From Nemertoderma westbladi (taxonomy: Eukaryota > Animalia > Xenacoelomorpha), in NCBI GenBank assembly GCA_032718475.1, contig JAUCBJ010008647.1, positions 26,939 to 90,938 of the forward strand: a stretch of 64,000 nucleotides of DNA, written 5' to 3'. Of this stretch, positions 6,001 through 56,862 are shown one piece after another; position 1 is the first letter of the stretch, and each line of letters opens with the position of its first letter. Made by a program: the position numbers and the translations under genes. The notes under the pieces are model-generated. The model saw only the letters and a program-made list of their open reading frames with translations. It was not told where the DNA came from and ran no database searches.

Positions 6001-9000
6001 ATAACAGACAGAAAGACAGTCACCTGTAATAATTAGTAAATAATAACAGACAGAAAGACAGTCACCTGTAATAATTAGTAAACAATAACAGACAGAAGGA
6101 CAGTCACCTGTAATAATTAGTAAATAATAACAGACAGAAGGACAGTCACCTGTAATAATTAGTAAATAATAATAGACAGAAAGACAGTCACCTGTAATAA
6201 TTAGTAAACAATAACAGACAGAAAGACAGTCACCTGTAATAATTAGTAAACAATAACCGATAGAAGGACAGTCACCTGTAATATTTAGTAAACAATAACC
6301 TATAATTAGTAAACAATAACCTACAGAAGGACAGTCACCTGTAATAATTAGTAAACAATAACCTATAATTAGTAAACAATAACCGATAGAAGGACAGTCA
6401 CCTGTAATATTTAGTAAACAAAAACCTATAATTAGTAAACAATAACCGATAGAAGGACAGTCACCTGTAATAATTAGTAAACAATAACCTATAGAAGGAC
6501 AGTCACCTGTAATAATTAGTAAACAATAACAGACAGAAGGACAGTCACCTGTAATAATTAGTAAACAATAACCTATAATTAGTAAACAATAACCGATAGA
6601 AGGACAGTCACCTGTAATATTTAGTAAACAATAACCTATAATTAGTAAACAATAACCTACAGAAGGACAGTCAACTGTAATAATTAGTAAACAATAACCT
6701 ATAATTAGTAAACAATAACCGATAGAAGGACAGTCACCTGTAATATTTAGTAAACAAAAACCTATAATTAGTAAACAATAACAGACAGAAGGACAGTCAC
6801 CTGTAATAAGTACTAAACAATAACCTATAATTAGTAAACAATAACCTACAGAAGGACAGTCACCTGTAATAATTAGTAAACAATAACAGACAGAAAGACA
6901 GTCACCTGTAATAATTAGTAAACAATAACCTACAGAAGGACAGTCACCTGTAATAATTAGTAAACAATAACCTACAGAAGGACAGTCACCTGTAATATTT
7001 AGTAAACAATAACCTATAATTAGTAAACAATAACCTACAGAAGGACAGTCACCTGTAATAATTAGTAAACAATAACCTACAGAAGGACAGTCACCTGTAA
7101 TATTTAGTAAACAATAACCTATAATTAGTAAACAATAACCTACAGAAGGACAGTCACCTGTAATAATTAGTAAACAATAACCTACAGAAGGAGAGTCACC
7201 TGTAATAATTTGTAAACAATAACCTACAGAAGGACAGTCACCTGTACTAATTAGTAAACAATAACAGACAGGAGGACAGTCACCTGTAATAATTAGTAAA
7301 CAATAACCTATAATTAGTAAACAATAACAGACAGAAAGACAGTCACCTGTAATAATTAGTAAACAATAACCTACAGAAGTACAGTCACCTGTATTAATTA
7401 GTAAACAATAACAGACAGAAGGACAGTCACCTGTAATAATTAGTAAATAATAACAGACAGAAAGACAGTCACCTGTAATAATTAGTAAATAATAACCTAA
7501 TTAGTAAACAATAACAGACAGAAAGACAGTCTCCTGTAATAATTAGTAAACAATAACCTATAATTAGTAAACAATAACAGACAGAAAGACAGTCACCTGT
7601 AATAATTAGTAAACAATAACCTACAGAAGTACAGTCACCTGTATTAATTAGTAAACAATAACAGACAGAAGGACAGTCACCTGTAATAATTAGTAAACAA
7701 TAACAGACAGAAGGACGTCACCTGTAATAATTAGTAAACAATAACAGACAGAAGGACAGTCACCTGTAATAATTAGTAAATAATAACAGACAGAAAGACA
7801 GTCACCTGTAATAATTAGTAAACAATAACAGACAGAAGGACGTCACCTGTAATAATTAGTAAACAATAACAGACAGAAGGACAGTCACCTGTAATAATTA
7901 GTAAATAATAACAGACAGAAGGACAGTCACCTGTAATAATTAGTAAATAATAACAGACAGAAAGACAGTCACCTGTAATAATTAGTAAACAATAACAGAC
8001 AGAAAGACAGTCACCTGTAATAATTAGTAAATAATAACAGACAGAAAGACAGTCACCTGTAATAATTAGTAAACAATAACAGACAGAAGGACAGTCACCT
8101 GTAATAATTAGTAAATAATAACAGACAGAAGGACAGTCACCTGTAATAATTAGTAAATAATAACAGACAGAAAGACAGTCACCTGTAATAATTAGTAAAC
8201 AATAACAGACATAAAGACAGTCACCTGTAATAATTAGTAAATAATAACAGACAGAAAGACAGTCACCTGTAATAATTAGTAAATAATAACAGACAGAAAG
8301 ACAGTCACCTGTAATAATTAGTAAATAATAACAGACAGAAGGACAGTCACCTGTAATAATTAGTAAACAATAACCTATAATTAGTAAACAATAACAGACA
8401 GAAAGACAGTCTCCTGTAATAATTAGTAAACAATAACAGACAGGACGGTCACCTGTAATAATTAGTAAATAATAACAGACAGAAAGACAGTCACCTGTAA
8501 TAATTAGTAAATAATAACAGACAGAAAGACAGTCACCTGTAATAATTAGTAAACAATAACCTATAATTAGTAAACAATAACAGACAGAAAGACAGTCTCC
8601 TGTAATAATTAGTAAACAATAACAGACAGGACGGTCACCTGTAATAATTAGTAAATAATAACAGACAGAAAGACAGTCTCCAGTAATAATTAGTAAACAA
8701 TAACAGACAGAAGGACAGTCACCTGTAATAATTAGTAAATAATAACCTATAATTAGTAAACAATAACCTATAATTAGTAAACAATAACAGACAGAAAGAC
8801 AGTCACCTGTAATAATTAGTAAACAATAACCTACAGAAGGACAGTCACCTGTAATAATTAGTAAACAATAACCTATAATTAGTAAACAATAACAGACAGA
8901 AGGACAGTCACCTGTAATAATTAGTAAATAATAACCTATAATTAGTAAACAATAACCTATAATTAGTAAACAATAACAGACAGAAAGACAGTCACCTGTA

Positions 9001-9575: not shown

Positions 9576-10136
9576 TGTTAGCTTATTCAATTCCGCTAAC
9601 ACCCCACAAAGTAAGCCGTTAAGCAATATTGGGAGCACGAGGTTGATTACCCAACCTCGTGCCACCCCGACAAAGTGGGAAGGAGAAACGCACAATAGGG
9701 GTCAGGGGCCATACCCCTGACAGAGAGAGAATAGCAGGAGTGAGGGGAAACACTCCAAAGGGCGCCAACAGGGATATTAGCCAATGGGGGAAGGCACCGG
9801 CTAGGTAGTGTAACGACGGCCAAACCGTGCAATATATATTATTAGGTACCATGTTACTGTAATCAGTTATCTCATTGTATTAGTCGGTTAGCTAGGGTAG
9901 AGCGGAGACTTCTAAGACCGTCCTCGCCTACCACCATTTTATCTGTACATACTGTAATAACTCTTTGTATTTCAACCATCTATACTGTATCCATTTTATA
10001 CTGTACCCATTACATTATACATATATCGGAGAATCAATAACATCAGAACTCTTAGACTCTTTTCACATTCACACGGCGGGGACGCGTACTTATAATAACC
10101 GCGGATAAACCGGGATCCTCCTTGGATCCCGTCACA
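9576..10136 (+). repeat. 5' LTR of BEL copy 1 (561 bp, TG...CA)
   Basis: TGTTAGC...GGATCCCGTCACA ends match the LTR ends of copies 2 and 3; TATA-like AATATATATT near 9831. Confidence 0.92.
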
Positions 10137-12026
10137 GTCTTAGAATTCCAGCCAGCTACCGATCTAAAGTAAAAGATGAGCGACGTAACGCCAACGCGGA
10201 CCCCGGACGAAGAACTAACGATCCGCGAGGCCGCGACCAGACGGTATAGGCCTACGACGCCGGACCCATCGGAAACGGGTCATCCGGCAGTTCAGGATGA
10301 GGGGGGCCATCTGGAGCCAGAAGTCGAGTCGAGAGGAGGGGGAGTCGAGTTGAGAGAAGGTGAGGGCGAGTTGGAAGGAGAAAGAGACGAGTCGACACAC
10401 GACGACGGTCGACATGCCAATGTCGCCGGCCAGCCACAGGCCGAGGGCGACGGACGGCCCACCGGGACAGCAACGGTGGGGCCGCCGGTACGACGTCGGA
10501 CCCGGAGAGATGGAGGAGAGGTCGGCGACGAGGACGTCGGGGTTTCTGATCGACTTCGATGGGCCTACAACGCGACCCGGAAGATACTTAAGGAGGCCAA
10601 GGAGGGGGCGAGGATAGACGAGGTAAAGTTGACAAAAGGACTAGGTGAGTCGGATAAACATTTTAGTTATCTAATGCGCTTCGGGCAGAGAGAACTGGCC
10701 AAGGAGAGAGTGAGAGGGGTTGCCGAGGAACTGTGTGATTTATGGCGGTGTAGGGGTATGCAACCTAGCGTAGTGTACATAGGGCCATACTTAGTCGATG
10801 CCCGGGGTATAAAATTAGTGGGTTGGAGGAGACCTGAGGAGGGCGAATCCGAGGTTAACCCCGAGGATTCGGTCTCATCGGTCGGAGGGAATTCCAGTTC
10901 CGGGAGGCGGGGGAGAGTTAGTAGGACGGGAAGGTGGAGGGAATCCGTCACAACCGATAAGTCTGCTACATCCTCCGTAAAAGGAAGACGGGTGAGGGAA
11001 ATAAACGCGGTGTACCATCTCGATCTGATAGCGCAGGGCCAGAGAGAGGTAGAGAGACAGTTAGAGGAGGGGAAAGCGCTATTAGAGAAAGAGATGGAAC
11101 TGATTAAAGAGACCGGAGAGAGGGCCGAGAGAGCCGCGAGAAGCTTTAGGGAGAGTGAGGAAATAGGGAGGAAGGAACAAGAGGAGCGTGAGGCGAGAGA
11201 GGAAAGTGAGCGTAAAGAGCGCAAGGCTGAACGTAAAGAGCGCGAGGCGAGAGAGGATAAGGAGCGTAGGGAGTGTGAGGCGAGAGAGGAAAGTGAGCGT
11301 AAAGAGCGCAAGGCGGAACGTAAAGAGCGCGAGGCGAGACGAACGGAGAGAATTGAGAGAGAGAAAGAACTGGCCGAACAGAGCGCGCGGGAGAGTCGGG
11401 AAATGATAGCAGACGGGAGGCGTATGCGGGATGGTTTACATGCCCGCCTAGGGGGGTTAATTCAGTACCAAACCAGACAGCAGCGCATACTGAAATTGGC
11501 GCGATTGGGGTTGTCAGAGAGTGAGGCTGGGTCGAGTGCTTTCGAGGAGCCAAGGGCCGAGGAAACATTTATTAATACCCCACTTACAGGAACCGCACGA
11601 CAGACCCGAGACTGGTGTAACCGTACGGGCGGGGGGGGGGGGGGGGGGGGGGGTAATAATAATACAACAGTAGACGACGTTAATATTAATAGTACCGTAT
11701 TGGATAACTCTAACCAAACTTTTATTGCAGGAAATATTTTACCTAGTAGTAGTAATTTAAATTTAAATCCGAATGATTCTAATATTAATGTAGGAAATAA
11801 TTATAATATTAATGTAGTTACGCAAAATAATCCAAATAATCTAAATAATAATCTGAATTCGAATTTACAAGATAATTCAAGTAACGCAATTGCGCAAAAT
11901 AATTCGAATAACTTTATTTTGAATGAACAAAATAATTCCGTTTCTAATTTGGGTGCACAAAATAATTTAACTGGGGTGGAGGATTTAATTGATTTAACCA
12001 ATAACGGTACCTGTGGTGCTATTAAT
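9576..12026 (+). mobile_element. BEL/Pao LTR retrotransposon copy 1: 5' LTR plus gag N-terminus, 3'-truncated
   Basis: Starts TGTTAGC; LTR and gag are homologous to copy 3 (38624-36280, minus); sequence switches back to satellite at 12027. Confidence 0.92.
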
Positions 12027-12044
12027 GTCACCTGTAATAATTAG
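10176..12044 (+). pseudogene. gag: Truncated gag N-terminal region (Glu/Arg coiled coil, Asn-rich tract) that runs into satellite
   Basis: ORF is homologous to the copy-3 ORFs 37657-38007, 36733-37209 and 35637-36755; the last codons are satellite-derived. Confidence 0.85.
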
Positions 12045-19625: not shown

Positions 19626-20153
19626 TGTGAGTGTATTCAATTCTGCCTCACCAACCCCCATAAAGTGGGCCAGCGAGACCCTTAAGCAATATTGGGAGCA
19701 CGAGGTTGATTACCAATCAACCTTGTATCACCCCAATAAGTGGGGCAACAATAGGCCCCAAGAGGACACACACACAATGGGGGTCAGAGGTTACACCTCC
19801 GGGAGGGAGAGAGAGACAGCAGCGGGGGGAAGTACACCCAGGGAGATGGGAAGGTGACAAGTGAGTTATTAGCCAATGGGGGGAAGGCATCGGCTGAGTA
19901 GTGTAATGCGGCCAACCGGTGCAATATATTACCATGTCGGTGTATCATTCATTCACTTGTAGTAAGTCAGTTAGTTAGGACGGTACCGGAACTCTAATTA
20001 CTGTGACGGGATCCACGGAGGATCCCGGTTTATCCGGTTTCTAATCTACGCGTCCCCGCCGTGTGTGTGAAAGGTAGAAAGAGTTATTGATCGGTGTATA
20101 TAGTTCCAAAGGTATAATAGTATATGATAATGGTTGTTATAATATAAGTGTAC
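19626..20153 (+). repeat. 5' LTR of copy 2 with its 3' 152 bp inverted (20002-20153)
   Basis: 19626-20001 matches 24359-24734; 20002-20153 is the reverse complement of 24784-24935. Confidence 0.93.
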
Positions 20154-22939
20154 CGGCAGACTGCAGGACATACTGTAGGCCTTACTGCACATACTATTAT
20201 AGGCCATGCTGGGAGAGATAGAGTAGGCGATAGGGTAGTGCGAACGACGGGATTAAACCCGGAAGTCGCGGAGTACATACCGGTAGGTAGGCAAGAAGTG
20301 GGTAGGCCTATATCGGTACAGCAGCATGACTATAATACACAGGGACATAACATATATCCAGGGAAGGGGAGAGTTATTGCTGATAGATGTATGGGCCCCA
20401 ATATATTAACATCAACCCCAGTACCAAACATTCCGGTGGGGGGGGGGGGGGGGGGACAGGGTGACATTCCCCCATTCCAATATCAACAATATACTCGAAC
20501 AGCAACGAGAACACCTAACCCCCTGGACGAGAACAGGTCTTGCGACACGGAAATATGGAGGGGGCCGTTACCCCCAATGATATATCCGACGCAACAAGTT
20601 AGATCAACAGCAGATAGGACGAACGGATCGCACCCAACGGCAGAATCTGTACAGCATCCATCGAACCCATTGGAAGCACAGGCGATGGGAATGGCGACGC
20701 TAATCGATGCATTAAAGACCAGGATCGAGTTACCACCAGTCGAGCCATTTAAATTCGATGGAAGTAGGCCGGAAGAATACCTGCAGTTTCGGCGCATGTA
20801 CAGTAACGAGATATTAAGTAAGAACTTGATGCAGGTGGAGTGCCTAAAATATCTACAGGTGTATACAGGAGGCCCAGCATACGACATCGTGAGGCAGTAC
20901 CAGAGCATCGAGGGCGGCTTCACGACAGCATGGCGGGCGCTAGACAGGGAATACGGACACCCGGCCAAGATCATCCGGCAAACCCTGAGAGGTATAACAT
21001 CGGGTGGCCTACAGGACAACCCCGTTAGCATAAAGACCTTTGCGAACAAGGTCGAGAAGGCGTTAATCGTGTTAAAGACGCTAGACGCGCCATACGAACT
21101 CAACGCATCTAATAACATCACCACAATAGCGCAGGCACTGCCGATCTGGCTGCGGAGCAAGTGGAGGAAGATCGCCTTCTCCACTCGAGAGAAGAAAGGT
21201 GCGGAGCCGGGGCTGGAGGAAATGTCAAACTTCCTCAACTACGAAGCCGAGTTGATAACAGACCCAGTCTATAGTGAGGATAGTTTGGGGAAGGCGCCAA
21301 AGACCGAATACAACAGGCCTGGACCCGAACATAATCCGACAGATCCATTCTCGAGAGTAAGACAGTCGCTACCACACGCGGCCACACAGGGGGCTACAAG
21401 CCCACAGTTAGCTGGGAGTAGGGCCACACCGTGGCAGGGACAGAAAGAAAATAACACCATAAATAAACATAATCCCAATATACCCAGTAGGCCGAGTACA
21501 GATAACCAAAACACTAAATCGGTAGATATAAACCTACGCGCAATACGTGAAGGACTATATAGGGAACGCTATAATCCAGGATTCAAATTTCAATTACATC
21601 GGGACGGAACCCATAAGACCATGAGTTCTAAGCACTGGCAAGCGTTGCCCAAACAAGATCGTATAGCCTACACAGACGCAAATGGACTATGTCATCGATG
21701 TGTGGTAGAAGGACACAGATCCGGAGAGTGTAGAGAAACAGCGACAGGAGATAACGAGACTGGAGGCCAAACAATGGCTACAAGCACGACAGTGGCAAGA
21801 AAGAAGAGAAAAGTACTACTCGGGGTAGTACTGGTGAAGATATCAGGAGAGGGCGGTCGATCAGTAACGACATTAATGCTGGTCGACAGCGGAGCAGCCT
21901 TCACGCTGGTGGAGAACTGGGTGGCCGAAGAGATAGGGCTAAAGACGAGGCCGAATAGAATGGCGGTAACCACCGTCTCAAGTAAGGATGAGGTCCTGGA
22001 GATGAGGACGGGACGGTGCAGGATATCAGCGATTGCACCGGGATGCAACTATGGGGCGACGATCGACCCCATCCATGTGATAGAATCGATAAACATCAAC
22101 GCCAGGCGACCAACCAACATCGAAGTCGAACAATATACAGTACATTCCTGGACGGTATCGATTTCTCAATACCAGAGGTGGACGTTAGGAAGGTATCCAT
22201 TATAGTAGGAATGGACTGCCCGACGGCCCACGAGAGAACAAAGACGGTCTTCGGCGAAGACAGGCAGCGGGACCCGACGGCGATCCTCACGCCGTTCGGA
22301 TGGACGCTTAGCGGCCCAGTTAAAACCAAGATTCCATCCAGAGTGACGGAGACATCAGGGTGCATGTTACCAGGCACCGTAGACACGGAGGTTGAAGAGG
22401 AGAAACAGGAGATAGTAGAGCCAGACAGGGAAGTAACAGTAAGAGAGTGGGCGGAGGAGAATGGATTTCCCAGCAAGTATCGGTATGGAGATGGAGAGGA
22501 GTGGACGGCGAGATGTCCGGAGGAGTGTCCGGTGGAGTGTCAGGAGGACAATAGTCCAGAGCAGTGTCTAGAGGAGTGTCCAGAGGAGTGTCCGGAAGAG
22601 ACGCCGGTCCGGTTGAGAGGCATACCGACAAGGGGGAGCTCGAGTAGGAAGACAGGATGGAAAGGGATAGGACTATTGTTGTACCTTCTGTTTTGCCTGT
22701 TCTTTCACTTTCTATTCATTCTGCCGCCGGGAGATAACAAGGTGGGAGGTGGCATTTTGATGCCAGGAGACGAGAAAGTTAAGAAGGCGGTGGAGAGACC
22801 CGATTTCAGGGTGGCAGAAGAGAGAGAACCAATTCCTGGTGAGTTGGAATTGGTGGAGAGAGTGTGGCAAAGAATAAGAGGACGTATAAAGGAGGCAGTG
22901 GGAGAGTGCCTACTGGAAAAAGGGGCACTTCAGAGTTAA
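20148..22939 (+). pseudogene. gag core + aspartic protease, frameshifted near 22140; the pol position holds an acidic/Cys-rich and hydrophobic segment
   Basis: FKFDGSRPEEYLQF gag motif, CHRC..GH...C knuckle, LVDSGAAFT protease motif, TPFGWTLSG; ORFs 20148-22205 and 22016-22939. Confidence 0.85.
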
Positions 22940-23169
22940 GTCGTCCAATATTTTGGACTGAGGGGGGTGGGAATGAGGGCGAGACGCCCTTCCCACACAA
23001 ATAATTATTTAATTAAAATAAATAACAAAATAATTAAATAATAAGATAAGTAGAAGGTAGAAAGTAATAGTTAGAAGAGATAGTAAGTAGTAGCAAGGAG
23101 TAGTAGAAAGTAGTAGTAGAGTGTTAGAAGGTGGCAGGGTAAGGGAGTGTGGTATATTAACATGCCACG

Positions 23170-23810
23170 AGTAGTAGCAGAGGGGTTGTGGGCACCGGAA
23201 GCGCCACGTAGAAAGTAGTAAGAGAGGGGTTGTGGGCACCGGAAGCGCCACATAGAAAGTAGTAAGAGAGGGGTTGTGGGCACCGTAAGTGCCACGTAGA
23301 AAGTAGTAAGAGAGGGGTTGTGGGCACCGGAAGCGCCATGTAGAAAGTGGTAGCAGAGAGTGGTTGTGGGCACCGCAAGCGCCACATAGATAGAGGTAGT
23401 AGAGTAGTAGAGAGGGCACATAGGGTGCCAGGTAGTAGAGTAGTAGAGAGGGCACATAGAGTGCCAGGTAGTAGAGTAGTAGAGAGGGCACATAGGGTGC
23501 CAGGTAGTAGAGTAGTAGAGATTGGCACATAGGGTGCCAGGTAGTAGAGTTAGAGGTAGTAGAGTAGTAAAGAGGGCACATAGGGTGCCAGGTAGTAGAG
23601 TAGTAGAGAGGGCACATAGGGTGCCAGGTAGTAGAGTAGTAGAGACGGGCACATAGGGTGCCAGATAGTAGAGTGGTTGTGGGCACCGCAAGCGCCATGT
23701 AGATGGAGGAAGTAGTAGTAGAGTGGTTGTGGGCACCGCAAGCGCCACGTAGATGGAGGTAGTAAGCAGAGTGGTTGTGGGCACCGCAAGCGCCACGTAG
23801 AAACTAGTAA
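23170..23810 (+). repeat. Internal tandem arrays (44-bp and 36-bp units) in the 3' region of copy 2
   Basis: GGGCACC recurs at 23190, 23234 and 23278; GGGCACA recurs at 23414 and 23450. Confidence 0.9.
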
Positions 23811-24358
23811 GTAGAGTTAGAGTTAGTAGAGAGTTAGAGGGTTTTAGTTAGAGCTAGTAGAGTTAGAGTTAGTAGAGAGTTGGAGAGTTCTAGTAGAGTT
23901 AGGAGTTAGTTAGAGTTAGAGAAGTTAGATAGTTAGATAGTTAGCAAGTTAGACCTTAGATAAGGTAGATAGTATGATAGCACAGGGGTAGCATTAGAGA
24001 TTAGGGCCTTAGGGAGTGGCAGAGAGTAGAGAGGAGTATGGAGAGGAGCTGCTGGCGAGAGGCAGAGCAGGCGAGTGCGATTCAGGTGTGGGGAGAGAGT
24101 AAGAGCGGAGTTAGAGCGGAGTTAGAGTGGTGAGAGTGTTGGGGAAACAAAAGTTGTGTGAAAGAAGCGCACGATCGGCCCGACACGAGACGCCAGAGGG
24201 TAGTGACATCATACCCATAGGGAGCAGCCTGGAAAGCCGACTCCAAGAAAAAATAACTCCACCCCACACCCGATAATAGATCGAGTTCCAGCGGAATTGA
24301 AGCGCACTTAGAGGTTGATGCTATCTTCTCTCCGGGAAGATAGCATGGGGGGGGGGAG

Positions 24359-24935
24359 TGTGAGCGTATTAAATTCCGCCTCACCAACCCCCATAAAGTG
24401 GGCCAGCGAGACCCTTAAGCAATATTGGGAGCACGAGGTTGATTACCAATAAACCTTGTATCACCCCAATAAGTGGGGCAACAATAGGCCCCAAGAGGAC
24501 ACACACACAATGGGGGTCAGAGGTTACACCTCCGGGAGGGAGAGAGAGACAGCAGCGGGGGGAAGTACACCCAGGGAGATGGGAAGGTGACAAGTGAGTT
24601 ATTAGCCAATGGGGGGAAGGCATCGGCTGATTAGTGTAATGCGGCCAACCGGTGCAATATATTACCATGTCGGTGTATCATTCATTCACTTGTAGTAAGT
24701 CAGTTAGTTAGGACGGTACCGGAACTCTAATTACCGTCACCGTCATTCCTGTCATCTGCCAATAGTACATATATCATTTACCAGTACACTTATATTATAA
24801 CAACCATTATCATATACTATTATACCTTTGGAACTATATACACCGATCAATAACTCTTTCTACCTTTCACACACACGGCGGGGACGCGTAGATTAGAAAC
24901 CGGATAAACCGGGATCCTCCGTGGATCCCGTCACA
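24359..24935 (+). repeat. 3' LTR of BEL copy 2 (577 bp)
   Basis: Follows the PPT; TGTGAGC...GTCACA; followed by the TSD. Confidence 0.95.
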
Positions 24936-25100: not shown

Positions 25101-25692
25101 TGTGACGGGATCTGCGGAGGATCCTGGTTTATCCGGTTTTTGGTTCCTAGTTTACGCGTCCCCACCGTGCGTGAAAGATATAAAGAGTTCTGGGTTGTTG
25201 ATCAATCGATGTATATAAGTTCGGGATATAATATAATAGAGATAATAGCACAAATGGTTGATGTATGATGTAATGTACCGGTAGGTGATATGTACTGGTG
25301 ACGGGGGGCGGAGACGGTAACTAGACCTAACTGTAACTAACGGTACTGTCCTAACTAGCTGACTTACTACAAGTGAATGAAATATTGCATGGACCGGTAA
25401 TATATTGCACAGTTGGCCATATTGCTCTACCCAGTCGATGCTTCCCCCCAATTGGCTAATATCCTAATTGTCGCCCCTTTACCTTCCCTGGAGTGTTTCC
25501 CGTTACTCCTGTTATTCCCTCTCTCTCTCAGGGGTGTAACCTCTGACCCCTTTGTGCGTATGTCCTCCGGGGTTTCCTTGTCCCCACTTTATTGGGGTGG
25601 TACGAGGTTGATATTGGATATCAACCTCGTGTTCCCAATATTGCTTAAAGCTCACTTTATGGGGCTGGTTAGTGGAATTGAATACGCTAACA
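25101..25692 (-). repeat. 3' LTR of BEL copy 3 (592 bp)
   Basis: Direct repeat of 38044-38624; adjoins the PPT. Confidence 0.95.
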
Positions 25693-26399: not shown

Positions 26400-28573
26400 C
26401 TAGTTCGTTCCACCAGCCTTTGGGAACCACCTCAAGTCTTTCCCTTTGTCTTCCCCCTCCCTGGGTCGTTTCCTGGTCACTGCCGCTCCTCTGGTCTTGT
26501 CTGCTTTCTGGCTTCTGACTCTCGCCGCCACCTCCTTGCTGATCCCGGTCGTCGACTCCTTGGGTGCCGGTGTTATTAGCTCCCGGTATCGCTTCGCGGG
26601 TGGCCCCTCCGAGTGGCCCTGTTGTCTCCCCCTGATGGCGTCCCATAGGATCATCTTCATTGCCCGCGGCACATGCTCCGCCAAGAAATCCCTAAACTCT
26701 CCTCTACTCTGTGGCGTCCACCTATACAAATACCTCTGCGTATTTATCACTCCGGCATATGATGCCGCCGTCGCCACTTTCTGGTAGGTAAACGGAAGCC
26801 TCCGTTTGATAATCTCCATGTGAGCCTCCTGATTGATGTTAAAGAAGCCCCACCGGAACTCCTGGGCCTTCATACGTTGCCGAGTCATCGCCCCGACGTC
26901 GGCCCATTCCTCGAAGATCCTAAACTTCTCTTCGTCGTCCATCCAGTCGCACTGGCGTCCGTAATGTCCCCGAAAGTTACACTTCGAACATCGGTTATGC
27001 AACCGTGGTCACGCCCCCATCCTGTGGCTCGACTCACGGCAATAGAGACAACTAGTCCCTTTCTGGACCCGGTACAAACAGCTCCTTTCCTGATGGGTCT
27101 GTCTCCCACAGTAATCACAGCTGAGCACCAATGTCTCCCGCCCTACGTCGTCTTTCGTCCCAAGCGATCTCCGTGGTCTGTGGAGTCGCTGATAAGCAAA
27201 CTTCCGGACGTTAGCGTCCCTATCTACGTCGATCTCCTCGCCCCTCTCGGGCATCGTCTCCCCGAATACTACCCTAGAGACTCCCCCGAACTCCCTGATG
27301 AAGTCCAACGAAGTTCGTCCAAGCCCGCTTGTTCCTCGAAGCCGTAGCTCTGTGCCCTAGCTTCCTCCTCCCTTTCTTCTGCTTCTCTCCTTTCCCGTCT
27401 GGCGACTTCTTCCAGTCGCTTCGCCTCTCGCCTATCCGTCTCTAGCTGCTCCCATCTCTGACACGGCGTATCCACCTCCCCGTCTACCAGATGTCGGCTG
27501 TTATAGTACACCGACTCGCCCTTCAGCCCCGGGTGGTCTACCAGACCCTCGAAAGCCGTCTTAAAGGCTCTTCTGTAGTTTAGGGGTGATCCCGATAATA
27601 GGAATGCCGTTGGTTCCCTCTCAATAATCACGGTCATGAATAGGTTAAGCAAACCTATCATTATCCAGTCCTCCTGTAGGATATATCGCTTCTGATATAC
27701 CTTTATAGCTCCTCTCCGGAATTGATACACCTCTTGTCTCCCTGGCCTCGCTCCCCACTTCAGTGAGTTCGCCAAGTCTGCTCCGTACTCCTCTCTGAAC
27801 TTGCCCCAGTCCATCAGTTTGTGACACATGAGCCCCATTAACTGGCCCATCGCCACTGCCCCGCAATGTCCTGTGGTCTCTATTAGTCCCAATCCGTCCG
27901 GCGCTGTCATAGCCATGTACACCGTCTGCGTATCCAGAAGGTTGGGGGTGTCCGGACCGATGATCCTCTCCGCGTCGTCGCGAATCGCCGATCCCACTTT
28001 TGTCCTCGACTTCTCTCTCACTAGTACTTGCACTGCCTTCGGCAGCCGGTTTAACTTCGGCCCATCCTTCTTTCCATACGTTCCTAGATCGAATAGGAAT
28101 ATGTCCCCATTTGGCACAGCCAAATGTAGGAGTATGGTTCTGGCTGACGCCGCCGATCCTCTCCTCGAACCCTCCTCGTCTTCCATGGTCCCCTCATCGT
28201 CCAGGACCATATACCCTTCTCTGCTGACGGACTCTACGAACCTCTTCCAATCCTTCCTCGGTGGATCCCTTGCGTACTTCGGAATCCCGAACTTCGCTTC
28301 GTCTCCTTTTATCACGTAGTGGAAATGCTCGAAGATCGCGTTGTCCAGCGACAGCGTCCCGTAGGTCCCGACCAGCCACTGTTCGTGCACCTCCCTGAAA
28401 TGGTCCTGTAGCGCTCGCGCTGCGTGACCCCTCTCTAACCGTTCGTAGTATCCCCTCGTTCTCTCTTCCGGATGCCTCTTGGTGAAATCCACCAGTATCT
28501 CCTTTCCTCCTAGCTCCGCCTTTCTCTTTCGCACAAGTTTGCTTGCCATCTCGAACTTTACCCGATCGCTCAC
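26400..28573 (-). pseudogene. Extra ORF3: DEDDy 3'-5' exonuclease (WRN/EXD2-like) + coiled coil + three CCHC knuckles; one frameshift (about 27310-27340) and one in-frame TGA (27009-27011)
   Basis: Motifs VLDDEG, LLHLAVPNGDIFLFDL, LPKAVQVLV..TKVGSAIRDD, LLDTQ and YQKRYILQED; knuckles CDYCGRQTHQERSC, CLYCRESSHRMGA* and CSKCNFRGHYGRQC. Motif recognition by eye. Confidence 0.75.
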
Positions 28574-29049
28574 CCGTTGGGTGGTGCCTTACCAAGGCGC
28601 AGTAGGGTGAGTGATAGGTTAAGGTGGTTTATCTCAGTTCGATGGCCTATCTCCCTCTGGATTACTAAGTTAATTAGCCTATTTCCACTGCTTGATTTCT
28701 GTAGCTACCAAATTGTACCTAAATTGTGAATTTTGTCAGTTACTTTTATTATGTTCCAGAATTTTCTTGCTGCTGTTACCATAATTTGTCAATTTCTTAG
28801 CTCTATCCTATTTTGGTATTTTTAATCTAATTCAATCCTACCATTGTGCTGTTACTTACTATTGCCTATGGATTATTCTATTTCATAATCCACATTCTGG
28901 CCTACTCTGTGGGCTTGTGCAGTACAACAGTATGCGTCGCGCGGCCTACACGATTTATCCAGCTGTACTCATATGCCCCCTCTCGCTACTAACTACTAAC
29001 TAATGTCTATACTATATATATATATCCCTCTACCTCTTACTCTTACAAA

Positions 29050-29687: not shown

Positions 29688-32600
29688 TCAAGGTGCCCCC
29701 TCTAGTAGACAGCATTTTCCTACAGCCCTCCTGTAGGTCTTTCTGTCTTTTGCACCTATCTTTCCACCTATTCGCACTTCTACCGATCGGACTCTTCCAT
29801 CCTCATCGGAGTAAGTGCCCACAACTCTCGCCAACCGCCATTGGTTGTTGATGATGGTATCATCCGTGACGATCACCAGATCACCCTCCTTTAGCTCTCT
29901 GTTCGTGTTCCTCCACTTACTTCTTCTGTGTAATGTGGGCAGATATTCCTCGACCCACCTCCTCCAGTATTCTGCGCTTATCGCCTTAGCGACTTTCCAA
30001 CTCTGGCGGGAGTGTATGTCGTCTGGGTCTACACCCCGCATGTCGACTGTCGCCGGCCTCTCCATTAGAAAGTGACTGGGCGTCAGCACGTCTAATGACT
30101 CAGGGTCATCATTCTCTGGATATAGCGGTCTGCTATTAATGATACCCTCACACTTTGCCAGTACTGTCCTTAGTACGTCCTCTGTAACCATGTGGGTGTT
30201 CATCAGCTTCGTCATCAGACGTTTCGAACTACCCAATAATCTCTCGACGCATCCTAGGGTATGCGGAGCATACGGCGTCCTCCTCTCCCACTTTACTTGT
30301 CGCCTTCTCATGGCCGCCCTGACTTCCTCCCCTTCCAGGATATCCAAGGCCTCCGCCATCTCGTTCTCCGCCCCCACAAAGTTGGTCCCGCTGTCAGAAT
30401 ACAGTACTGCGATTGTCCCACCTTTGCGGTCTCTAAATCTTTCTAAAGCATTAATGAATGCTGATGCGGTTGCATCTTGGGCGAGTTCTATTCCTACCGC
30501 CCGCGTGTTGTTACATACGAAGATGATACCATAGCGTTTCTCCGTGTGCCGCATCACCTTAATCTTTATCGGCCCGAACATATCCACACTGCAATGCGTA
30601 AATGGCGGGTCGTGCTGTCTTACTCTACTGGCCGGTAGTGGCGCCATTTCCTGTATGGCCCGTTCCTTCTTCTCCCGTCGGCAGCTCTGGCACTGCCCCA
30701 CTACCGCCTTTACCTTCTTCCTCAACTGTTTGACCCAAAAGGTCCTTCTTATCTCCGTGAGGGTTCGGTTGGTGCCCCCGTGCAATATCGATTTGTGGGA
30801 GTCCCAGATAATCTGGTGGACTATCGGCGATCCTGTGGGAATGATGATGGGCTTCGGTGGTACGACGATACTGTTGTTGTATCCCACCCTAGAGTTCATT
30901 ACTAGGATCCCGTCGTCATTAAGTTGTGGTGACAGCGTGATCAGCTCGCTGTCCCGCCGGAGATGCTGTTGCTTACCAACGCGTTCCACCTCGTCGCCAT
31001 AGTTCTTCCTCTGCTCGTAGTGGATGACTGCTTTGGCCGCTCCTTCCAGGTCTATTGTCGTTCTAATCTTCACGTCTTTACCAACTCCCCTGAGGAAATT
31101 CCCGAAGGCTCTCCAGTATGCCACTAACTTCTTGGTCTTGTACCAACTAGAACTGTAGCTAAGGAGTTTATCCGTCGGGTTATCGCACAGTTCTCCTGGT
31201 TTTGGTTGCACGTCCCTTATCTCCCTCACCATCTGGGAGTATATCTCCTCTCCCTCTGAATCTCCCTCTTCTCCTTCTGACACTACTTCTCCTGAGCCCG
31301 GGTCCACCTTTCTCATCGGCGGCCAGGCCTCCCTATCGCTCAGAAACTGTGGCCCGTGTTGCCACAATACTTCCTTCTTCAAGAAAGTGTGGCGTACCAC
31401 GCCCCTCGATAACAATTCCGCTGGGATCTCGTCCGTTGGGCAGTAGTGCCACCTTTCCAGTTTTGTGGTCGCCCTTATTTCGTCCACTCTATTCGCGACG
31501 AATATAGGGTATCTCGTCCTTTCGTTGTGTAGCCAACCGAGCACTACCATGGAATCCGTCCAGTAGTGTGTTTCCACTATGTTGGGAATAGCGTCCACTA
31601 AGTAGGGTATGGCCCTAACTCCTAATCTCGCAGCTGTCAACTCGAGTTTCGGAACTGATGCTGAGTCTGGTGGCGTCGACTTCGCTTTACTGAATGCGAG
31701 TCTGGGCTTGTGAGCCCCCTCTCGTTGTACTAAGTAGAGTGCCGCTCCATATGCCTCTAATGACGCATCGGAGAACATATGTAGATCCAGATTCGTCTCC
31801 CCATCCGGGAAATATACACGCGGCATGCTGTATGTTCCCATCTGCTCTAAACTCTCTGTCCACTTGTTCCACTGCTTACTAATCTCTTCTGGGACCTCTG
31901 CGTCCCACTCGTCCTTTAATTTGTATACTCTCTTGAGTATCTGTTTCCCCGTGACTAGTAATGGGGATGCTAGGCCTAGGGGATCGTATATCCTCGCTAT
32001 ATATGACACATAGCCCCTCTTTGTGTGGATACCTGCTCCCTCCTGACTCAATTGGTATTTTAACTCATCTGTCTCTCTGTTCCACACGATTCCCAGTGCC
32101 TTCTGTTGAGACTCTATCCTCTTGTTCGCCATGTCCTGCCCCTTGGCTGTTGTGGGATTATCCATGGTCGATCCTGGTCTCTCGTCTTTTATTGCCTCGA
32201 TAAATTCCTTCGAACTGGATTGGAATTTGGTTAGGTTGAAGCTGGATCCTTTAAGGATGTCGCGAACCTCGCGCCCTGTGTCCAGTAGCTCCTTAACCGT
32301 ATTTCCAGACTCCATCCCGTTGTCTACGTAGAAGCCGCGTCGAATCATATCGACGGCTTTGGCGCTGAACTTATCTTCCTTCCCTGCTACCGTATCTCTT
32401 ACGGCCATAGTCGTTGTAAACGAAGACGACTTGGCTCCCATATTCTGTAATACCATCTTATACATTGGTATGGTCGACGGTTCCTCATCGCCGTCGTACC
32501 ATAGGAAGCGTTGGCTGTCGCTATCCTCTCCCGTTACACGGACTTGGTTGAACATGCCTTCAATGTCGCAGGTGAAAGCGTGTTTGCCATTCCTGAATCT

Positions 32601-33545
32601 GAGTAGGACCTCGATCCCTGAGTTGTAGATGTTGGGACCCTCCAGCAGATAATCGTTTAGGCATTTCCCGTTGGTCTTGGCTGATGCGTCAACTGCCATC
32701 CGCAGTTTACCTTTCTTCGGGTCTATAGCCACGTGGAGTGGCAGGTAATAGGTCCTGTCCGTGTTTGGCTCGTCGACCGGTAACTCCACGGCCCATCCTT
32801 TCTCGACATACTTTCTAATTGTCTTCTGGATGTACTCATTCTTCTCGGGGCTCCGTTTTAACGTCTGCTTTAACTTGCGAAGCCTCGTAAGTACCATCCC
32901 TTTGTTGTCGGGTAACGGTAGCTTTGGTAGCTTCCATACCATCCCTATGGTATACCGCCCCTCATCGCATGTCATCGATTCCTTTACACTTTGTAAAGCC
33001 TGCTTGTCTTCTACCGAGGTTCCGACCCCGGTCTCCTTTAATCCCTCAAAATCCTGCCTGAGCAGTCTCCTGAGTTGCTCCCCTGCTCCCTCATCCTCCA
33101 TCTCTCGCATAGTTCCCGCGAACATGCATCCTGATGTCTCCGACATCCTAAATGGTATCTTACTCTTGATTGGGCCACTCAGTGTCCACCCGAATGGTGT
33201 CAATATCGCCACCGGGTCACATTGCCTGTCTTCGCCGAAGACCGTTTGCATTCTCTAGTGGGCCGTTGGGCAGTCCATTCCTACTATGATGGATACCTTT
33301 CTAACGTCCACCTCTGGGATTGAGAAGTCGATACTGTCCAGGAATCTGTATTGTTCGACCTCGATGTTGGTTGGCCGTCTGGCGTTAATATTTATCGACT
33401 CTATCACCTGGATGGGGTCTATGGTCGCCCCATAATCGCATCCCGGTGCTACCGCTGCTATCATGCACTGTCCGGTTCTCATCTCCAGAACCTCATCTTT
33501 GCTGGAGATGGTTGTTACCGCCATTCTACTTGGCCTCGTTCTCAA
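29688..33545 (-). pseudogene. pol: BEL/Pao pol (RT, RNase H, integrase): 1187-codon open stretch preceded by a premature TAG at 33255-33257
   Basis: YYLPLH, LNDYLLEGP, DIEGMFNQV, FYVDN, SDAS, HGG..C..C zinc finger, DDE core. Confidence 0.95.
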
Positions 33546-36500
33546 TCCCGTCCGGTTCTCATCTCCAGAACCTCATCTTTGCTGGAGATGGTTGTTACCG
33601 CCATTCTACTTGGCCTCGTTCTCAATCCTATCTCTTCGGCCACCCAATCCTCAACTAAGGTGAAGGCTGCACCACTGTCGACCAGCATGAGTGTGGTTAC
33701 TGATCGGTTGCCTTCGCCGATTATCCTTACTGGTACTACCCCTAATAGTACCGTCCCTCTCTTCTTTGCTACTTCGGTGCTTGTTGCCATTGTTTGTCCT
33801 TTACTCTGACCGAACTTAGTTGGCGTTTCTCTGCATTGTCTAGCTCTGTGTCCACTCATCACGCATCGCAAGCAGATGTCATTTCTCGCCGCGTATTCTA
33901 CCTGATCTTCCCTGGGTAGCGCCTGCCAGTACCTGCAGTTCATGGTCTGATGAAGCGCATTTGAATGTAGCTGACATTTGCTCTTTGGATCGTAGCCATC
34001 CTTATACAGTGCATTGCGTATCGCAGATGCATTTGTACCAAAGTCCTTACTGTTCTTATTGTTTAAATTCTGCCTACTGGGCGTACTGGGGGTATGTTTA
34101 TTTGTGTTGTTATTTTTCCCCTGTCCGCTCCATGATGTGGACTTACCCTCGGCTACCTGTGGACTTGCAGTCCTCTGCGTCGCTGCGTATGGCAGTGATT
34201 GCCTGAGCTTTGGTAATGCGTTTGACGTGTTATGTTCTGGTTTCGGCCTGTGGTAATCGGTCTTTGATCCCTTTCCCAGGCTATCCTCGCTGTATACTGG
34301 GTCCGTTATAAGTTCAGCTTCATAGTTTAAGAAGCTTGACATCTCTTCTAAACCCGGTTCCGCACCCTTCCTATCTCGAGTGGAGAAAGCGATTTTCCTC
34401 CACTTATTGCGCAGCCACATCGGAAGTGCCTGGGCTATCGTTATGATGTTGTTGGACGCGTATGGCGCATCCAATGTCTTTAGCACGATTAGCGCCTTCT
34501 CGACTTTGTTAGCGAATGTCTTTATGCTAACGGGGTTATCCTGTAGGCCACCCGATGTTATACCTCTCAGGGTCTGCCGGATGATCTTGGCCGTGTGCTC
34601 GTATTCCCTGTCTAACGCCCGCCATGCCGTCGTGAAGCCACCCTCGATACCCTGGTATTGCCTCACGATGTTGTATGCTGGGCCCCCTGTATATACTTGC
34701 AAATACTTTAGGCACTCCGCCTGCGTCAAATTCTTTGTTAATATTTTGTTACTATACATGCGCCGAAACTGTAGGTATTCTTCCGGTCTACTCCCATCGA
34801 ATTTGAATGGTTCCACGGGTGGTAACTCGATCCTTGTTTTTAGTGCATCGATTAATGTGGCCATCCCCACCGCTTGCGCTTCCAATGGGTTCGATGGGTG
34901 CTGCATAGGTTCTCCCGTTGGGTGCGGTCCGTTCGTCCTGTTTGCCGCTTTCCTCTGACTTGGATATATCATAGGGGGTAGCGGCCCCCTCCATATTTCT
35001 GTGTCACATGATCTATTCTCGTCCAAGGGGTTCGATGTTCTTACTCCTACTGGGGTATATTGTTGATATTGTGATGGGGGAATGTCACCCTGCCCCCCCC
35101 CCCCCCCCCCACTGGTATATTTGGTACTGGGGTTGATGTTAATATATTGGAGCCCATGCATCTATCCGCAATAATCCCCCCTTCCCCTGGGTATATGTTA
35201 TGTCCTTGCATGCTGTAGCCATACTGCTGTGCTGGTACCGGTATAGGCCTATCTACTTCTGGTCTCCTTGCCGGTATATACTCCGCGACTTCCGGGTTTA
35301 ATCCCGCTGTTCGCGCTATCCTATCGCCTATATTATCTCTCTCAGCATAGCCTATGGTATGTGCAGTAAGGCCTACAGTATGTCCTGCAGTCTGTATGTG
35401 TCGCTCGGGATCGAAGTTTATCCTTCTCGAATAATCCTCCCCGCGCCCACCGCATTCTCGATCGGTAGGTATATCCCGTCGGGAAGCTTCTCTTCGACCC
35501 CCTCTACTGCTCTCGCTCTCGTGCCGGTACATCCCGTACCCCTCTCTCTGTGCGCAATACGCCTCGTCAGGTCGCACTCCTCCGGGGCGACGGCAATCTC
35601 CCGAAGTTCGACCCTGCTGACTCTCCGTCTCCACCTCTACCACCGACGGCTCGCTATCCGTCCTCGCTCTCCTGTCGTTCGTGGCGACACTTCTTCCACT
35701 CTCTTCCCTTCTTCTCTCTGTAGTGCAGTATTCCCGCTCGTGAGATCTCTCGTCGACCTCCCGGTTAAACTCCACTGTTCTTCTTCCCTCTTCTGATCAG
35801 GCTCGACGCTTCGTCCGCCCTCTCGCGACGTCAACCTGTCTCTCTCTGCTCGATTGCATGCCGCTGGGGATACTCGCAATCCCCCTATCACTCTCCGTCG
35901 CCGGGTGTTGCGGTTTACCTGTCTCAGCCCGCGCATTATCCGTCGACGTCTGTGGGGCACTCTCTGCCCCCCACTTTTCGCCGCTAACTCGCTGTTGTGG
36001 GGCTCCTGTAGCCCCCCCCCCCCCCACTCGCCACATCTAACTTCACTATCTCTCACCCCGCTACTATATCCCTCTCTAGCCGACACATCAACCCTACTGC
36101 GGCTGGGTCCATTCACCCCCGCCTCTCCCTCTGCTATTGTGTGGCCTACCAGGCCCTCTACTTTCTGCCTACTAATTACGTGGCCTACCAGGCCCTCTCC
36201 GGGTTGGCTCAACCCCGCCACTTCCAGCCCACTAACTAAGTGGCCTACCAGGCCCTCGTCTGCCGGGTTATACACGTCCAACACATTCACGTTAATAGCA
36301 CCACTAATATTGTCATTGGTTAGATCAATTAAATCCTCTAACTCGATTAAGTTACCTTGTGCGCCCAAATTAGAAACGGAATTATTTTGCTCGTTCGAAA
36401 TAAGATTATTTGAATTATTTTGTAAATTCAGACTTATATTTAAATTATTTGAATTATTTTGTAAATTCGGACTTAGATTATTTATTTTCTTTTGATTATT

Positions 36501-38007
36501 TTCTACATTAATATTAGAATCACTAGGATTTAAATTACTACTGTCGGGCAAAATATTATTTCCTGCAATGAAAGTTTGATTAGAATTATCTAGTACAGTA
36601 CTATTAATATTAACGTTGTCTACTGTATCATTATTATTACCCCCCCCCCCCACCCGTACAGTTACACCAGTCTCGGGTCTGTCGTGCGGTCCCTGTAAGT
36701 GGGGTATTAATAAATGTTTCTTCGACCCTCGGCTAAGCACTCGAGCCAGCGTCACTCTCTGACAGCCCCATCTGGGCCATTTTTAGTCTGCGCTTCTGTC
36801 TGGTTTGGTACTGAATGAGCCCCCCTAGGCGGGCATGTAAACCATCCCGCACACGCTTCCCCTCTGCTGCTCTTTCCCGACTCTCCCGCGTGCTCTGCTC
36901 GGCCAAATCCCTCGCTCTCTCAACTCTCTCCATTCGTTTCGCCTCCCTTGCCACCTCACGCTCTTTAAGTTCTGCCTCGCGCTCTTTTCGTTCAGCCTCG
37001 CGCTCTTTGCGTTCACACTCCTCTCTCGCCTCACGCTCTTCTCGTTCCTTCCTCCCTATTTCCTCACACTCCCTAAAGCTTCTTGCGGCTTTCTCGGCCC
37101 TCTCTCCGGTCTCTCTAGCCAGTTCCATTTCTTTCTCTAATAGCACTCCCCCTCCTCTAACTGTCTCTCTACTTCTCTCTGGTCTTGCGCTATCAGATCG
37201 AGATAACACGCCGCATTTATTTCCCTCACCCGTCTTTCTTTTACGGAGGATGTAGCAGACTTATCGGTTGTGACGGATTCCCTCCGCCTTCCCGTCCTAC
37301 TAACCCCCCCCCCTTTTTCCGGAACTTTTTCCGACCGACGAGACCGAATCCTCGGGGTTAACCTCGGATTCGCCCTCCTGCGGTTTCCTCCAACCCACTA
37401 ATTTTATTCCCCGGGCATCGACTAAGTATGGCCCTACGTACACTACGCTAGGTTCCATACCCCTACATTCCCATAGTTCAAACAGTTCGGTGGCAACCCC
37501 TCTCGCTCTCTCGCTGGCTAGTTCTCCCTGCCCAAAACGTTTTAGATAGTCAAAGTGTTCGTTCGACTCACCTAGTCTTTTCTTTAGGTTTACCTCGTCT
37601 ATCTTCGCCCCTCCTTTGGCCTCTCTCAGCTGCTTCCGGGTTGCGGCGTAGGCCCGTCAAAGCCGGTCGCTGACCCCGACGTCCTCGTCGCCGACATCTG
37701 CTCTATCTCTCCGGGTCCGGCGTCGTACCGGTGGCCCCACCGTCGCCGTTCCGGTGGGCCGTCCGTCGCCCTCGGCCTGTGGCTGGCCGGCGACACTGGC
37801 ACGTCGACCGCCGTCGTGTGTCGACTCGTCTCTCTCTCCTCCCGACTCGTCCTCCAGTTGTAGACGGCTCCCCTCGCGTTGGATCACCGGGTCACCCGTT
37901 GGCGATGGGTCCGGTGTCGTGGGCCTATACCGTCGTGTCGCGGCCTCGCGGATCGTTAGATCGCCGTCCGGGGTCCGCGTCGGTGTCGTCTCTCCTATTC
38001 GGTTCAT
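33542..38007 (-). pseudogene. gag: Long gag + protease of copy 3, broken by frameshifts, stops and an 80-bp duplication
   Basis: ORF pieces 37657-38007, 36733-37209, 35637-36755, 35047-35775 and 33542-35161; C..H/C..C knuckles; LVDSGA. Confidence 0.9.
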
Positions 38008-38043
38008 CGTAGCGTAGTCAGGCAGTAGTTGCTATCTAGTTAC

Positions 38044-38624
38044 TGTGACGGGATCTGCGGAGGATCCCGGTTTATCCGGTTTTTGGTTCCTAGTTTACGC
38101 GTCCCCACCGTGCGTGAAAGATATAAAGAGTTCTGGGTTGTTGATCAATCGATGTATATAAGTTCGGGATATAATATAATAGAGATAATAGCACAAATGG
38201 TTGATGTATGATGTAATGTACCGGTAGGTGATATGTACTGGTGACGGTAGGCGGAGACAGTAACTAGAGTTCCGCTACTGTCCTAACTAGCTGACTTACT
38301 ACAAGTGAATGAAATATTGCATGGACCGGTAATATATTGCACAGTTGGCCATATTGCTCTACCCAGTCGATGCTTCCCCGCTATTGGCTAATATCCTAAT
38401 TGTCGCCCCTTTACCTTCCCTGGAGTGTTTCCCATTACTCCTGTTATTCCCTCTCTCTCTCAGGGGTGTAACCTCTGACCCCTTTGTGCGTATGTCCTCC
38501 GGGGTTTCCTTGTCCCCACTTTATTGGGGTGGTACGAGGTTGATATTGGATATCAACCTCGTGTTCCCAATATTGCTTAAAGCTCACTTTATGGGGCTGG
38601 TTAGCGGAATTGAATACGCTAACA
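38044..38624 (-). repeat. 5' LTR of BEL copy 3 (581 bp)
   Basis: Direct repeat of 25101-25692; gag ATG lies 37 bp downstream on the minus strand. Confidence 0.95.
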
Positions 38625-49240: not shown

Positions 49241-49561
49241 CAAATTTGTAATTACATAATTGTAACTAGATGAGGGTCTTTATTGCATATGCGTTTTACA
49301 AATTGTTCATTAAAACTTACTAATTGTGGTGATAATATATGCCTCGCCCCACGGATATCCTGGGACGAGAGGGGAGAGACCTACCGGTGTTGGACAGTCA
49401 GTATGGCGGTGTTAGTCAGTCAGTACCACCAGTTTATCTAGGCTACTTACTGCATGCCCTGACCGGTCCTCAGAGGACCCTATTATATATGATCACAGTA
49501 TCTGCTCCAGACAAAGGTTTTGTTCGTCTGCTGCCTCGCAGCAATAGTAGATACACCCACA

Positions 49562-49579
49562 TGGCGCAGTGTGTAGGAT
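49562..49579 (+). promoter_or_regulatory. tRNA primer-binding site TGGCGCAGTGTGTAGGAT (tRNA-Ser-like, by recollection)
   Basis: Canonical TGG immediately after the LTR's terminal CA. Confidence 0.8.
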
Positions 49580-49590
49580 AATTTGGGCCC

Positions 49591-56695: not shown

Positions 56696-56830
56696 CTGCT
56701 CACACGCTCCTTTTATCTCATTACTAACTAACTACAGTATATGGTGAAGGGTTGGACAGTATAAATATGTCCACATATAATGTCTAACTATATTTTATTG
56801 TGCTTATTTACCCCGAACGGGGGTGTATCT

Positions 56831-56862
<32 letters not shown>

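Follow-up and report, generated by a model that had tools for sequence, protein, structure and literature searches.

How does a BEL/Pao-type retrotransposon begin reverse transcription when no tRNA site follows its 5' LTR? The ICTV account of BEL/Pao (Belpaoviridae, Semotivirus) gives elements of 4.2–10 kb with an 18-nt primer-binding site (PBS) for tRNA-Arg or tRNA-Gly, and makes host-tRNA priming a trait of the whole family, whose replication is poorly understood (PMC8742986). The question is raised by a 64,000-nt stretch of Nemertoderma westbladi DNA (contig JAUCBJ010008647.1), hereafter the window. It holds three related LTR elements, each inserted in a 42-bp satellite, and the argument turns on a 9-nt motif (9-mer) in their LTRs.

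9576..10136, plus strand: copy 1 5' LTR, TG...CA, 561 nt.
10173..12044, plus strand: copy 1 gag, 5' part, 76% DNA identity to copy 3; the element is truncated, then satellite again.
19626-24935, plus strand: whole of copy 2, 5-bp TSD ACAGT, large internal deletions.
24359..24935, plus strand: copy 2 3' LTR, 577 nt, 9-mer at 24726-24734, polypurine tract before the LTR.
38624-25101, minus strand: whole of copy 3, 13.5 kb, both LTRs present, 5-bp TSD CTAAT.
38044..38624, minus strand: copy 3 5' LTR, 581 nt, 9-mer at 38268-38260.
33542..35161, minus strand: copy 3 gag-protease part, with DUF1759 and aspartyl protease.
29688..33254, minus strand: copy 3 pol, with RT, RNase H and integrase; Peptidase_A17, Integrase_H2C2 and DUF5641.
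25101..25692, minus strand: copy 3 3' LTR, 592 nt, 9-mer at 25325-25317.

The satellite runs through window positions 1-39450. The copies sit at different phases of it, flanked by GACCG, ACAGT and CTAAT, and an insertion preference of copies 1–3 for this repeat is possible. Copies 2 and 3 lie in opposite orientation with 165 nt between them.

Pfam profiles on the window elements (DUF1759, aspartyl protease, Peptidase_A17, Integrase_H2C2, DUF5641) make up the BEL/Pao set, and copy 3 has the BEL/Pao order of protease, RT, RNase H and integrase. The LTRs, of 561–592 nt, fall within the BEL/Pao range of 0.2–1.2 kb, begin and end TG...CA, and come with a G-rich polypurine tract and a 5-bp TSD. In DUF1759, Peptidase_A17, DUF5641, gene order, LTR termini, polypurine tract and TSD the elements thus resemble the ICTV description; they differ from it in the length of copy 3 (13.5 kb against 4.2–10 kb) and in having no tRNA site where the 18-nt tRNA-Arg or tRNA-Gly PBS is described. 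Because the tRNA PBS is absent, we call them BEL/Pao-type and do not file them under that description. Pairwise, the LTRs of copies 1, 2 and 3 differ by 76–82 substitutions plus 80–116 gap columns, so the copies are separate subfamilies. The two LTRs of copy 3 align with 571 matches, 10 mismatches and 11 gap columns. An 11-nt indel block between them (25326-25345 against 38269-38280, minus strand) lies immediately upstream of the 9-mer and contains a partial repeat of the 9-mer end.

The best relatives of copy 3 pol are 30–36% identical, 36% being the maximum to anything found. Its RNase H has the acidic motifs. At pol residues 309-312 the RT catalytic motif departs from that of the relatives, and copy 3 is therefore probably inactive; its gag is split among several reading frames. 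Between pol and the 3' LTR lies an extra stop-free frame of 439 aa (27269-28588, minus strand). Pfam, PDB and homologue searches with it gave no match, and its structure model was unusable (pLDDT 31.5). By eye it may resemble a DEDD 3'-5' exonuclease.

An earlier note on this DNA had proposed that a 9-mer within the LTR pairs with the sequence just past the 5' LTR.

9910..9918, plus strand: copy 1 candidate primer 3' end, TTCTAAGAC.
10137..10145, plus strand: copy 1 predicted PBS, GTCTTAGAA, zero spacer, without TGG.
38000..38043, minus strand: copy 3 predicted PBS and extended leader arm, with the 9-mer GTAACTAGA at 38043-38035.

In copy 1, GTCTTAGAA at 10137-10145 is the reverse complement of TTCTAAGAC at 9910-9918; in copy 3, GTAACTAGA at 38043-38035 complements TCTAGTTAC at 38268-38260 and 25325-25317; at the homologous LTR site copy 2 has TCTAATTAC (19993-20001 and 24726-24734). 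The self-match is unique within the LTR of each of copies 1 and 3, with the PBS set directly against the terminal CA. No TGG occurs in the first 24 nt past either of these two intact 5' LTRs. The distance from 9-mer to LTR end is 218 nt in copy 1, 216 nt in copy 3 and 201 nt in copy 2. Between copies 1 and 3 the 9-mers differ at 6 of 9 ungapped positions, or by fewer events in a shifted alignment, and the match to the own LTR is 9 nt against 3–5 nt across subfamilies when pairs are swapped. On recomputation, then, the note's account held in full: exact pairing, no TGG past the intact LTRs, pairing kept as the 9-mer changes between subfamilies, a spacerless PBS 201–218 nt from the 9-mer, and the copy 2 9-mer at the homologous LTR position.

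Of the internal positions, 4 of 1854 and 20 of 12274 matched the LTR somewhere over at least 9 nt by chance. With freedom of spacer and splicing allowed, the per-copy tail was weaker (0.033 and 0.013, over 150 control positions); despite this, both copies 1 and 3 match at the homologous LTR site. We found no intron in the window's own LTRs that yields a longer perfect match. ARAGORN gave no match over the window. Rfam, at the gathering score, gave no match in the window either, and so no known self-cleaving ribozyme in an LTR, as would mark a retrozyme.

The same host DNA supplies a putatively tRNA-primed control.

49325-52755, plus strand: short LTR element with RT and integrase, an ordinary TGG site adjoining the 5' LTR.

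Its self-match is at most 5 nt. It is nested in a larger element (47262-58738) with long inverted arms of a 53-bp repeat, which also encloses an endonuclease-RT frame (53897-56695).

Beyond the 9-mer the pairing continues imperfectly for about 45 nt in copies 1 and 3, spanning the stretch between the predicted start site and the gag ATG. The LTR stretch from start to 9-mer and the first 42–44 nt of leader are predicted to form an interrupted duplex running through the first ATG.

near 9781, plus strand: CCAAT, copy 1, predicted, with Inr-like sites at about 9865 and about 9874.
9833..9843, plus strand: copy 1 TATA-like box, predicted, consensus match only.
9872..9909, plus strand: copy 1 upstream duplex arm, predicted, of the interrupted LTR-leader duplex.
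9919..9928, plus strand: 5' arm of a predicted 10-bp stem, immediately 3' of the primer end; partner GGCGGGGACG at 10075-10084.
10146..10180, plus strand: copy 1 downstream duplex arm, spanning the first in-frame ATG (10176).

Duplex energies for the own pairs were −33.1 (copy 1) and −39.0 (copy 3) kcal/mol, compared with −23.1 and −17.0 for swapped pairs. Even without the 9-mer the extension beat shuffled sequences modestly: −23.5 kcal/mol in copy 1, with 32 of 1000 shuffles as low, and −28.0 kcal/mol in copy 3, with 15 of 1000. The leader start ranked first among 619 (copy 1) and 4092 (copy 3) internal segments, and the best LTR segment was the 9-mer region (−34.3 and −40.2, versus −18.8 and −21.4 elsewhere). 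Helix probability was 0.67–1.0 for copy 1, and 0.96–1.0 for copy 3 if at least 22 nt upstream were included. In all four complete LTRs, the 10 nt past the 9-mer can form 9 or 10 of 10 pairs with GGYGGGGACG, a conserved motif close to the LTR end.

TATA-like boxes, as consensus matches, stand 77–86 nt upstream of the primer 3' end in the window, and the transcript is predicted to start about 45–55 nt upstream of the 9-mer end, near 9865-9874 in copy 1. Boxes so far upstream argue against a primer made up of the transcript's first 11 nt. Among the relatives introduced below, a TATA-like box was located in 9 of 24, 60–232 nt upstream of the primer end. The caution that the mechanism may differ from that of Tf1 thus still holds. 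The poly(A) signal AWTAAA was found downstream of the 9-mer in none of the four window LTRs, and none was found immediately upstream of the 9-mer in the window.

Copy 2 is rearranged at this very site.

19626..20001, plus strand: copy 2 5' LTR, the last 9 nt being its 9-mer TCTAATTAC (19993-20001).
20002..20156, minus strand: copy 2 inverted LTR end, the last 155 nt of the LTR, in a spacerless joint to the 9-mer.

The 5' LTR ends exactly at the last base of the 9-mer (20001). Positions 20002-20156 are the reverse complement of the last 155 LTR nt, starting from the terminal base, and 154 of the 155 are identical to the end of the 3' LTR. After the inverted LTR end the sequence jumps into gag, resuming about 2.6 kb downstream. 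At this joint the 9-mer's last base runs straight into a minus-strand copy of the LTR end, starting with that copy's first base, which fits what would arise if a strand with the 9-mer at its end were elongated on a PBS. The junction is compatible with aberrant reverse transcription, and also with template switching at the DNA level between inverted 9-mers. With either origin, the PBS of copy 2 complemented its own 9-mer.

Public DNA contigs of the family, from four runs (X1, X2, X3 and X5) of at most three studies, extend the comparison beyond the window. In X1 the summed depth was about 69,800 where the LTR ends, dropped to 500 just past it and recovered at the gag start, and five of the six post-LTR joints listed depart from copy 1 past position 10138, that is, after CA-GT. 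From this depth drop and these joints we take CA-GT to be common to the family, with divergence beyond it. The majority letters of the loose ends behind 10138 agreed with the predicted copy 2 PBS at 7 of 7 positions in X1 and X3 and with the copy 3 PBS at 6 of 7 in X2 and X5, while in three of the four runs the contigs agreed with one another there at a level of only about 0.5. Inside the 9-mer, at 9916, a G-to-T variant turned up in three runs (6, 1 and 3 contigs), and in X1 one contig has a correspondingly changed PBS after CACA. The two changes are not physically linked, and as covariation they are suggestive only.

More distant relatives were collected by a pol alignment search, giving 79 metagenome loci (from the best 80 of 585 confirmed) and 17 genome-bin loci. 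The 17 (L080-L096) are BEL/Pao loci inside genome bins labelled as bacteria, and are probably contamination from animal hosts. Fifty-nine loci were examined for LTR pairs and 37 scored against control positions with ad hoc donor motifs; 29 entered a strict-splice scoring with stricter donors, after removal of four near-duplicates and four loci without the needed part. In 11 loci the LTR ends were fixed independently of pairing, 10 through LTR divergence (in L019 the divergence-based end was shifted 10 nt by eye) and L031 through the contig end; in 18 of the 29 relatives they were set by eye with pairing in view. L002, L017, L029, L051, L065 and others were left out of both classes, self-matching and TGG. 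L037, L063 and L066, where the needed LTR part is absent, gave background scores. When spliced matches were sought at every CA without constraint, chance alone scored 10–12, and that scan gave way to scoring from fixed LTR ends against controls. No metagenome contig matched a DNA pattern written for the LTR end, and scans of viral contigs confirmed no relative.

Nine of the 11 independently ended loci lack TGG and have a self-match of 10–14 nt, a length that no more than 1 of 150 control positions attained in any of them; the other two have TGG, and their LTR match is just 4–5 nt. Seven of the nine reach the full match only once a predicted GT-AG intron of 71–388 nt is taken out of the LTR; unspliced, the same seven match over 5–9 nt, against 10–14 nt spliced. 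A match present only across a predicted splice junction argues for pairing at the RNA level, against both a DNA artefact and tRNA fragments. The DNA artefact would be local inversion or gene conversion equalising short inverted repeats, with no role in replication. The rearrangement of copy 2 at this very site and the indel block adjoining the 9-mer in copy 3 are what it would lead one to look for, but where the match is absent as contiguous DNA, as in those seven independent relatives, DNA pairing could not maintain it, and we regard this explanation as extremely improbable.

With strict splice sites, 24 of the 29 relatives have a self-match. Counting the two window copies, 26 of 31 elements match their own LTR over at least 9 nt, compared with 57 of 930 cross pairs. 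None of the leaders of the 30 others reaches 9 nt against the LTRs of copies 1 or 3. The five misses are L060 and the four TGG elements (self-match in 0 of 4). L060 had been a candidate self-matcher and fails under strict donors, having a non-canonical donor and a 37-nt intron. L050 had been scored as a TGG element; it lies inside the self-matching clade, and since its 3' LTR carries a split primer like those of L032 and L044, the contig is likely to begin beyond the PBS, and we no longer count L050 as a TGG element.

Primer ends are AC in 21 of the 24 self-matching relatives and AT in three, with C or G usually the next base, as in the window, and the PBS lies 0–6 nt from the LTR end. The window core, at 9 nt, is shorter than the 10–14 nt of the relatives. 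AWTAAA was located 3' of the primer end in 19 of 24 (a count without a chance control). The LTR termini of three self-matching loci (L019, L041 and L087) are TA or AA, not CA. In global folding, with one arbitrary 5' end, the primer helix reached at least 0.7 in 8 of 18 relatives; in L009, L040, L074 and L092 it was at most 0.05 at each 5' end tried. The two LTRs of L043 differ: the 5' LTR part (1-326) has an acceptor-like site before the primer end, and the intron-free 3' LTR (6694-7103) has the joined form at the position of the L074 intron. Precise intron loss through spliced RNA, or a chimeric contig, is the likely explanation.

These counts bear on two further explanations. A fragment of a host tRNA might prime, with the LTR match incidental; priming by half-tRNAs exists in Ty1/copia lineages (PMC6317226). 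The post-LTR sequences vary by family, yet they track their own LTR, often across the predicted splice junction. A host tRNA would not track LTR changes, and we consider this origin very unlikely. The pairing might also be a real RNA structure serving to mask the gag start, or in packaging or dimerisation, while another primer is used. That the extended helix spans the first ATG in copies 1 and 3 suits such a role, and in fungal GalEa a hairpin of no established mechanism is conserved where the PBS would be expected (PMC5445492). A structure of this kind does not call for a perfect core 0–6 nt from the LTR end that finishes in AC or AT across very different sequences, nor for its presence only where TGG is absent (0 of 4 TGG elements have it), and the copy 2 junction reads as an extension from exactly the last base of the 9-mer; we think this role without priming distinctly unlikely.

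We built a pol tree of 32 sequences (17 self-matching, 4 TGG and 11 unlabelled), reading broken frames with X and leaving the tree unrooted. A single change separates self-matching from TGG elements (91/82, not starred; 99% of 200 bootstrap trees), and self-priming may have had one origin, as far as an unrooted tree can suggest. The 16 other self-matching rows group with fish and echinoderm proteins in one starred clade (99/100); the window pol, on a long branch (2.63), falls immediately outside that clade. A FastTree of 72 rows put the window pol beside unlabelled arthropod and fish proteins, and we are unsure of the placement of the window lineage. The self-matching clade includes fish, echinoderm and mollusc proteins, a host range resembling that of the Sinbad, Suzu and Sailor groups as given in PMC6238403, which we offer as a lead only.

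Judged from sequence comparison, tRNA-independent self-priming is the supported and best reading of the window elements. The earlier note had proposed tRNA-independent priming in a BEL lineage, and the 24 of 29 relatives with a self-match, the negative TGG class and the copy 2 junction all speak for it. Self-priming in some form seems to us highly probable. We also consider it likely, with less assurance, that the form is Tf1-like, with a longer 5' piece of the element's own RNA, ending inside the transcript, as the primer. The 5' 45–55 nt of the transcript would fold onto the leader through the 9-bp core, the interrupted helix of about 45 nt and the adjoining 10-bp stem. A cut just past the final AC of the 9-mer, likely by the element's RNase H, would leave a 3' end paired at the LTR edge; this release of the primer by RNase H is taken over from Tf1 (PMC7175516, PMC5341516). 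A strong-stop DNA of 201–218 nt would then jump to the 3' R. Poly(A) signals downstream of the primer end, as in the relatives, would leave room for the R overlap that strand transfer needs after the cut. The PBS would be re-copied from the retained primer, and the two 9-mers would stay matched. For many relatives, host splicing would first have to excise the intron from the 5' R to create the primer end.

Another piece of RNA could prime instead: the 3' end of the genomic RNA, or a short LTR transcript, ended or trimmed at the 9-mer, as in hairpin or DIRS-like proposals. It requires the identical complementarity, the whole 5' part of the predicted R pairs with the leader, the window LTRs lack a canonical poly(A) signal, and copy 3 has the 439-aa frame that by eye alone, without a database match, looks exonuclease-like. 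Against it, 19 of 24 relatives have AWTAAA 3' of the primer end, none stands just upstream of the window 9-mer, and the intron-bearing relatives retain their intron in both LTRs, which would be most simply explained if splicing removes it from the 5' copy and leaves it in the 3' copy. We judge this source of the primer unlikely.

Self-priming as such is known; here it is proposed for a superfamily described as tRNA-primed. PMC6317226 and PMC4600332 describe or predict self-priming in Tf1/sushi and Tcn1 and in the TAR lineage of plant copia elements. Like Tf1/Tf2/Tj1, Tf1/sushi and Tcn1, the window elements have no tRNA site and a PBS that complements their own R, going by PMC7175516, PMC4600332, PMC5341516 and PMC6317226, and the 11-nt pairing given there for the Tf1 type is a typical length among the BEL/Pao relatives. 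They differ in superfamily, the window having BEL/Pao families and not the Ty3/gypsy chromovirus polyprotein. The Tf1 primer consists of the first 11 nt of the RNA, whereas here its 3' end is predicted 45–55 nt inside, and up to about 200 nt in relatives; the window has a 9-nt core with a long interrupted extension, and many relatives span a predicted splice junction. In the plant Ty1/copia TAR lineage (Houba, Osr-1), too, self-priming was inferred from LTR-PBS complementarity outside chromoviruses; TAR is a plant copia lineage, and the available text of PMC6317226 makes no mention of a splice-built primer. The Conserved Hairpin Site of fungal GalEa is likewise a 9-bp conserved element at the PBS position without a tRNA match, but both its hairpin arms lie past the LTR, and its authors found no LTR complement (PMC5445492); here the partner is in the LTR and covaries.

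Word searches of the available text of three BEL/Pao surveys (PMC554778, PMC3118150 and PMC6238403) returned no mention of PBS, priming or tRNA, and the retrievable portions of PMC5445492, PMC6934838, PMC3601003, PMC13524379, PMC12451622 and PMC8672886 contained nothing on BEL/Pao self-priming. Among the matches listed by full-text literature searches we found no report of it; an earlier remark is possible in Repbase, GyDB, subscription journals or supplements.

The wider picture that we favour, more guardedly than the mechanism itself, is of a large BEL/Pao branch in fish and marine invertebrates that does without tRNA priming, with the window lineage at or near its base. Its primer would be a long capped 5' fragment cut after AC. 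In most members splicing of an LTR intron would build the primer end and so license reverse transcription, and the intron-free window family would pay with fold-backs like that of copy 2.

Because this model specifies the bases at which RNAs should end and cDNAs should be joined, sequencing alone would suffice to test it. If it is true, annotation pipelines that demand a tRNA PBS miss or misjudge these elements. It also bears on whether a hairpin or self-priming is ancestral in LTR elements, a question raised in PMC3601003. A major part of BEL/Pao would then prime without tRNA, making this the third LTR superfamily to do so, and by a route unlike the 11-nt primer of Tf1, with an internal cut site and, in relatives, a primer built by splicing.
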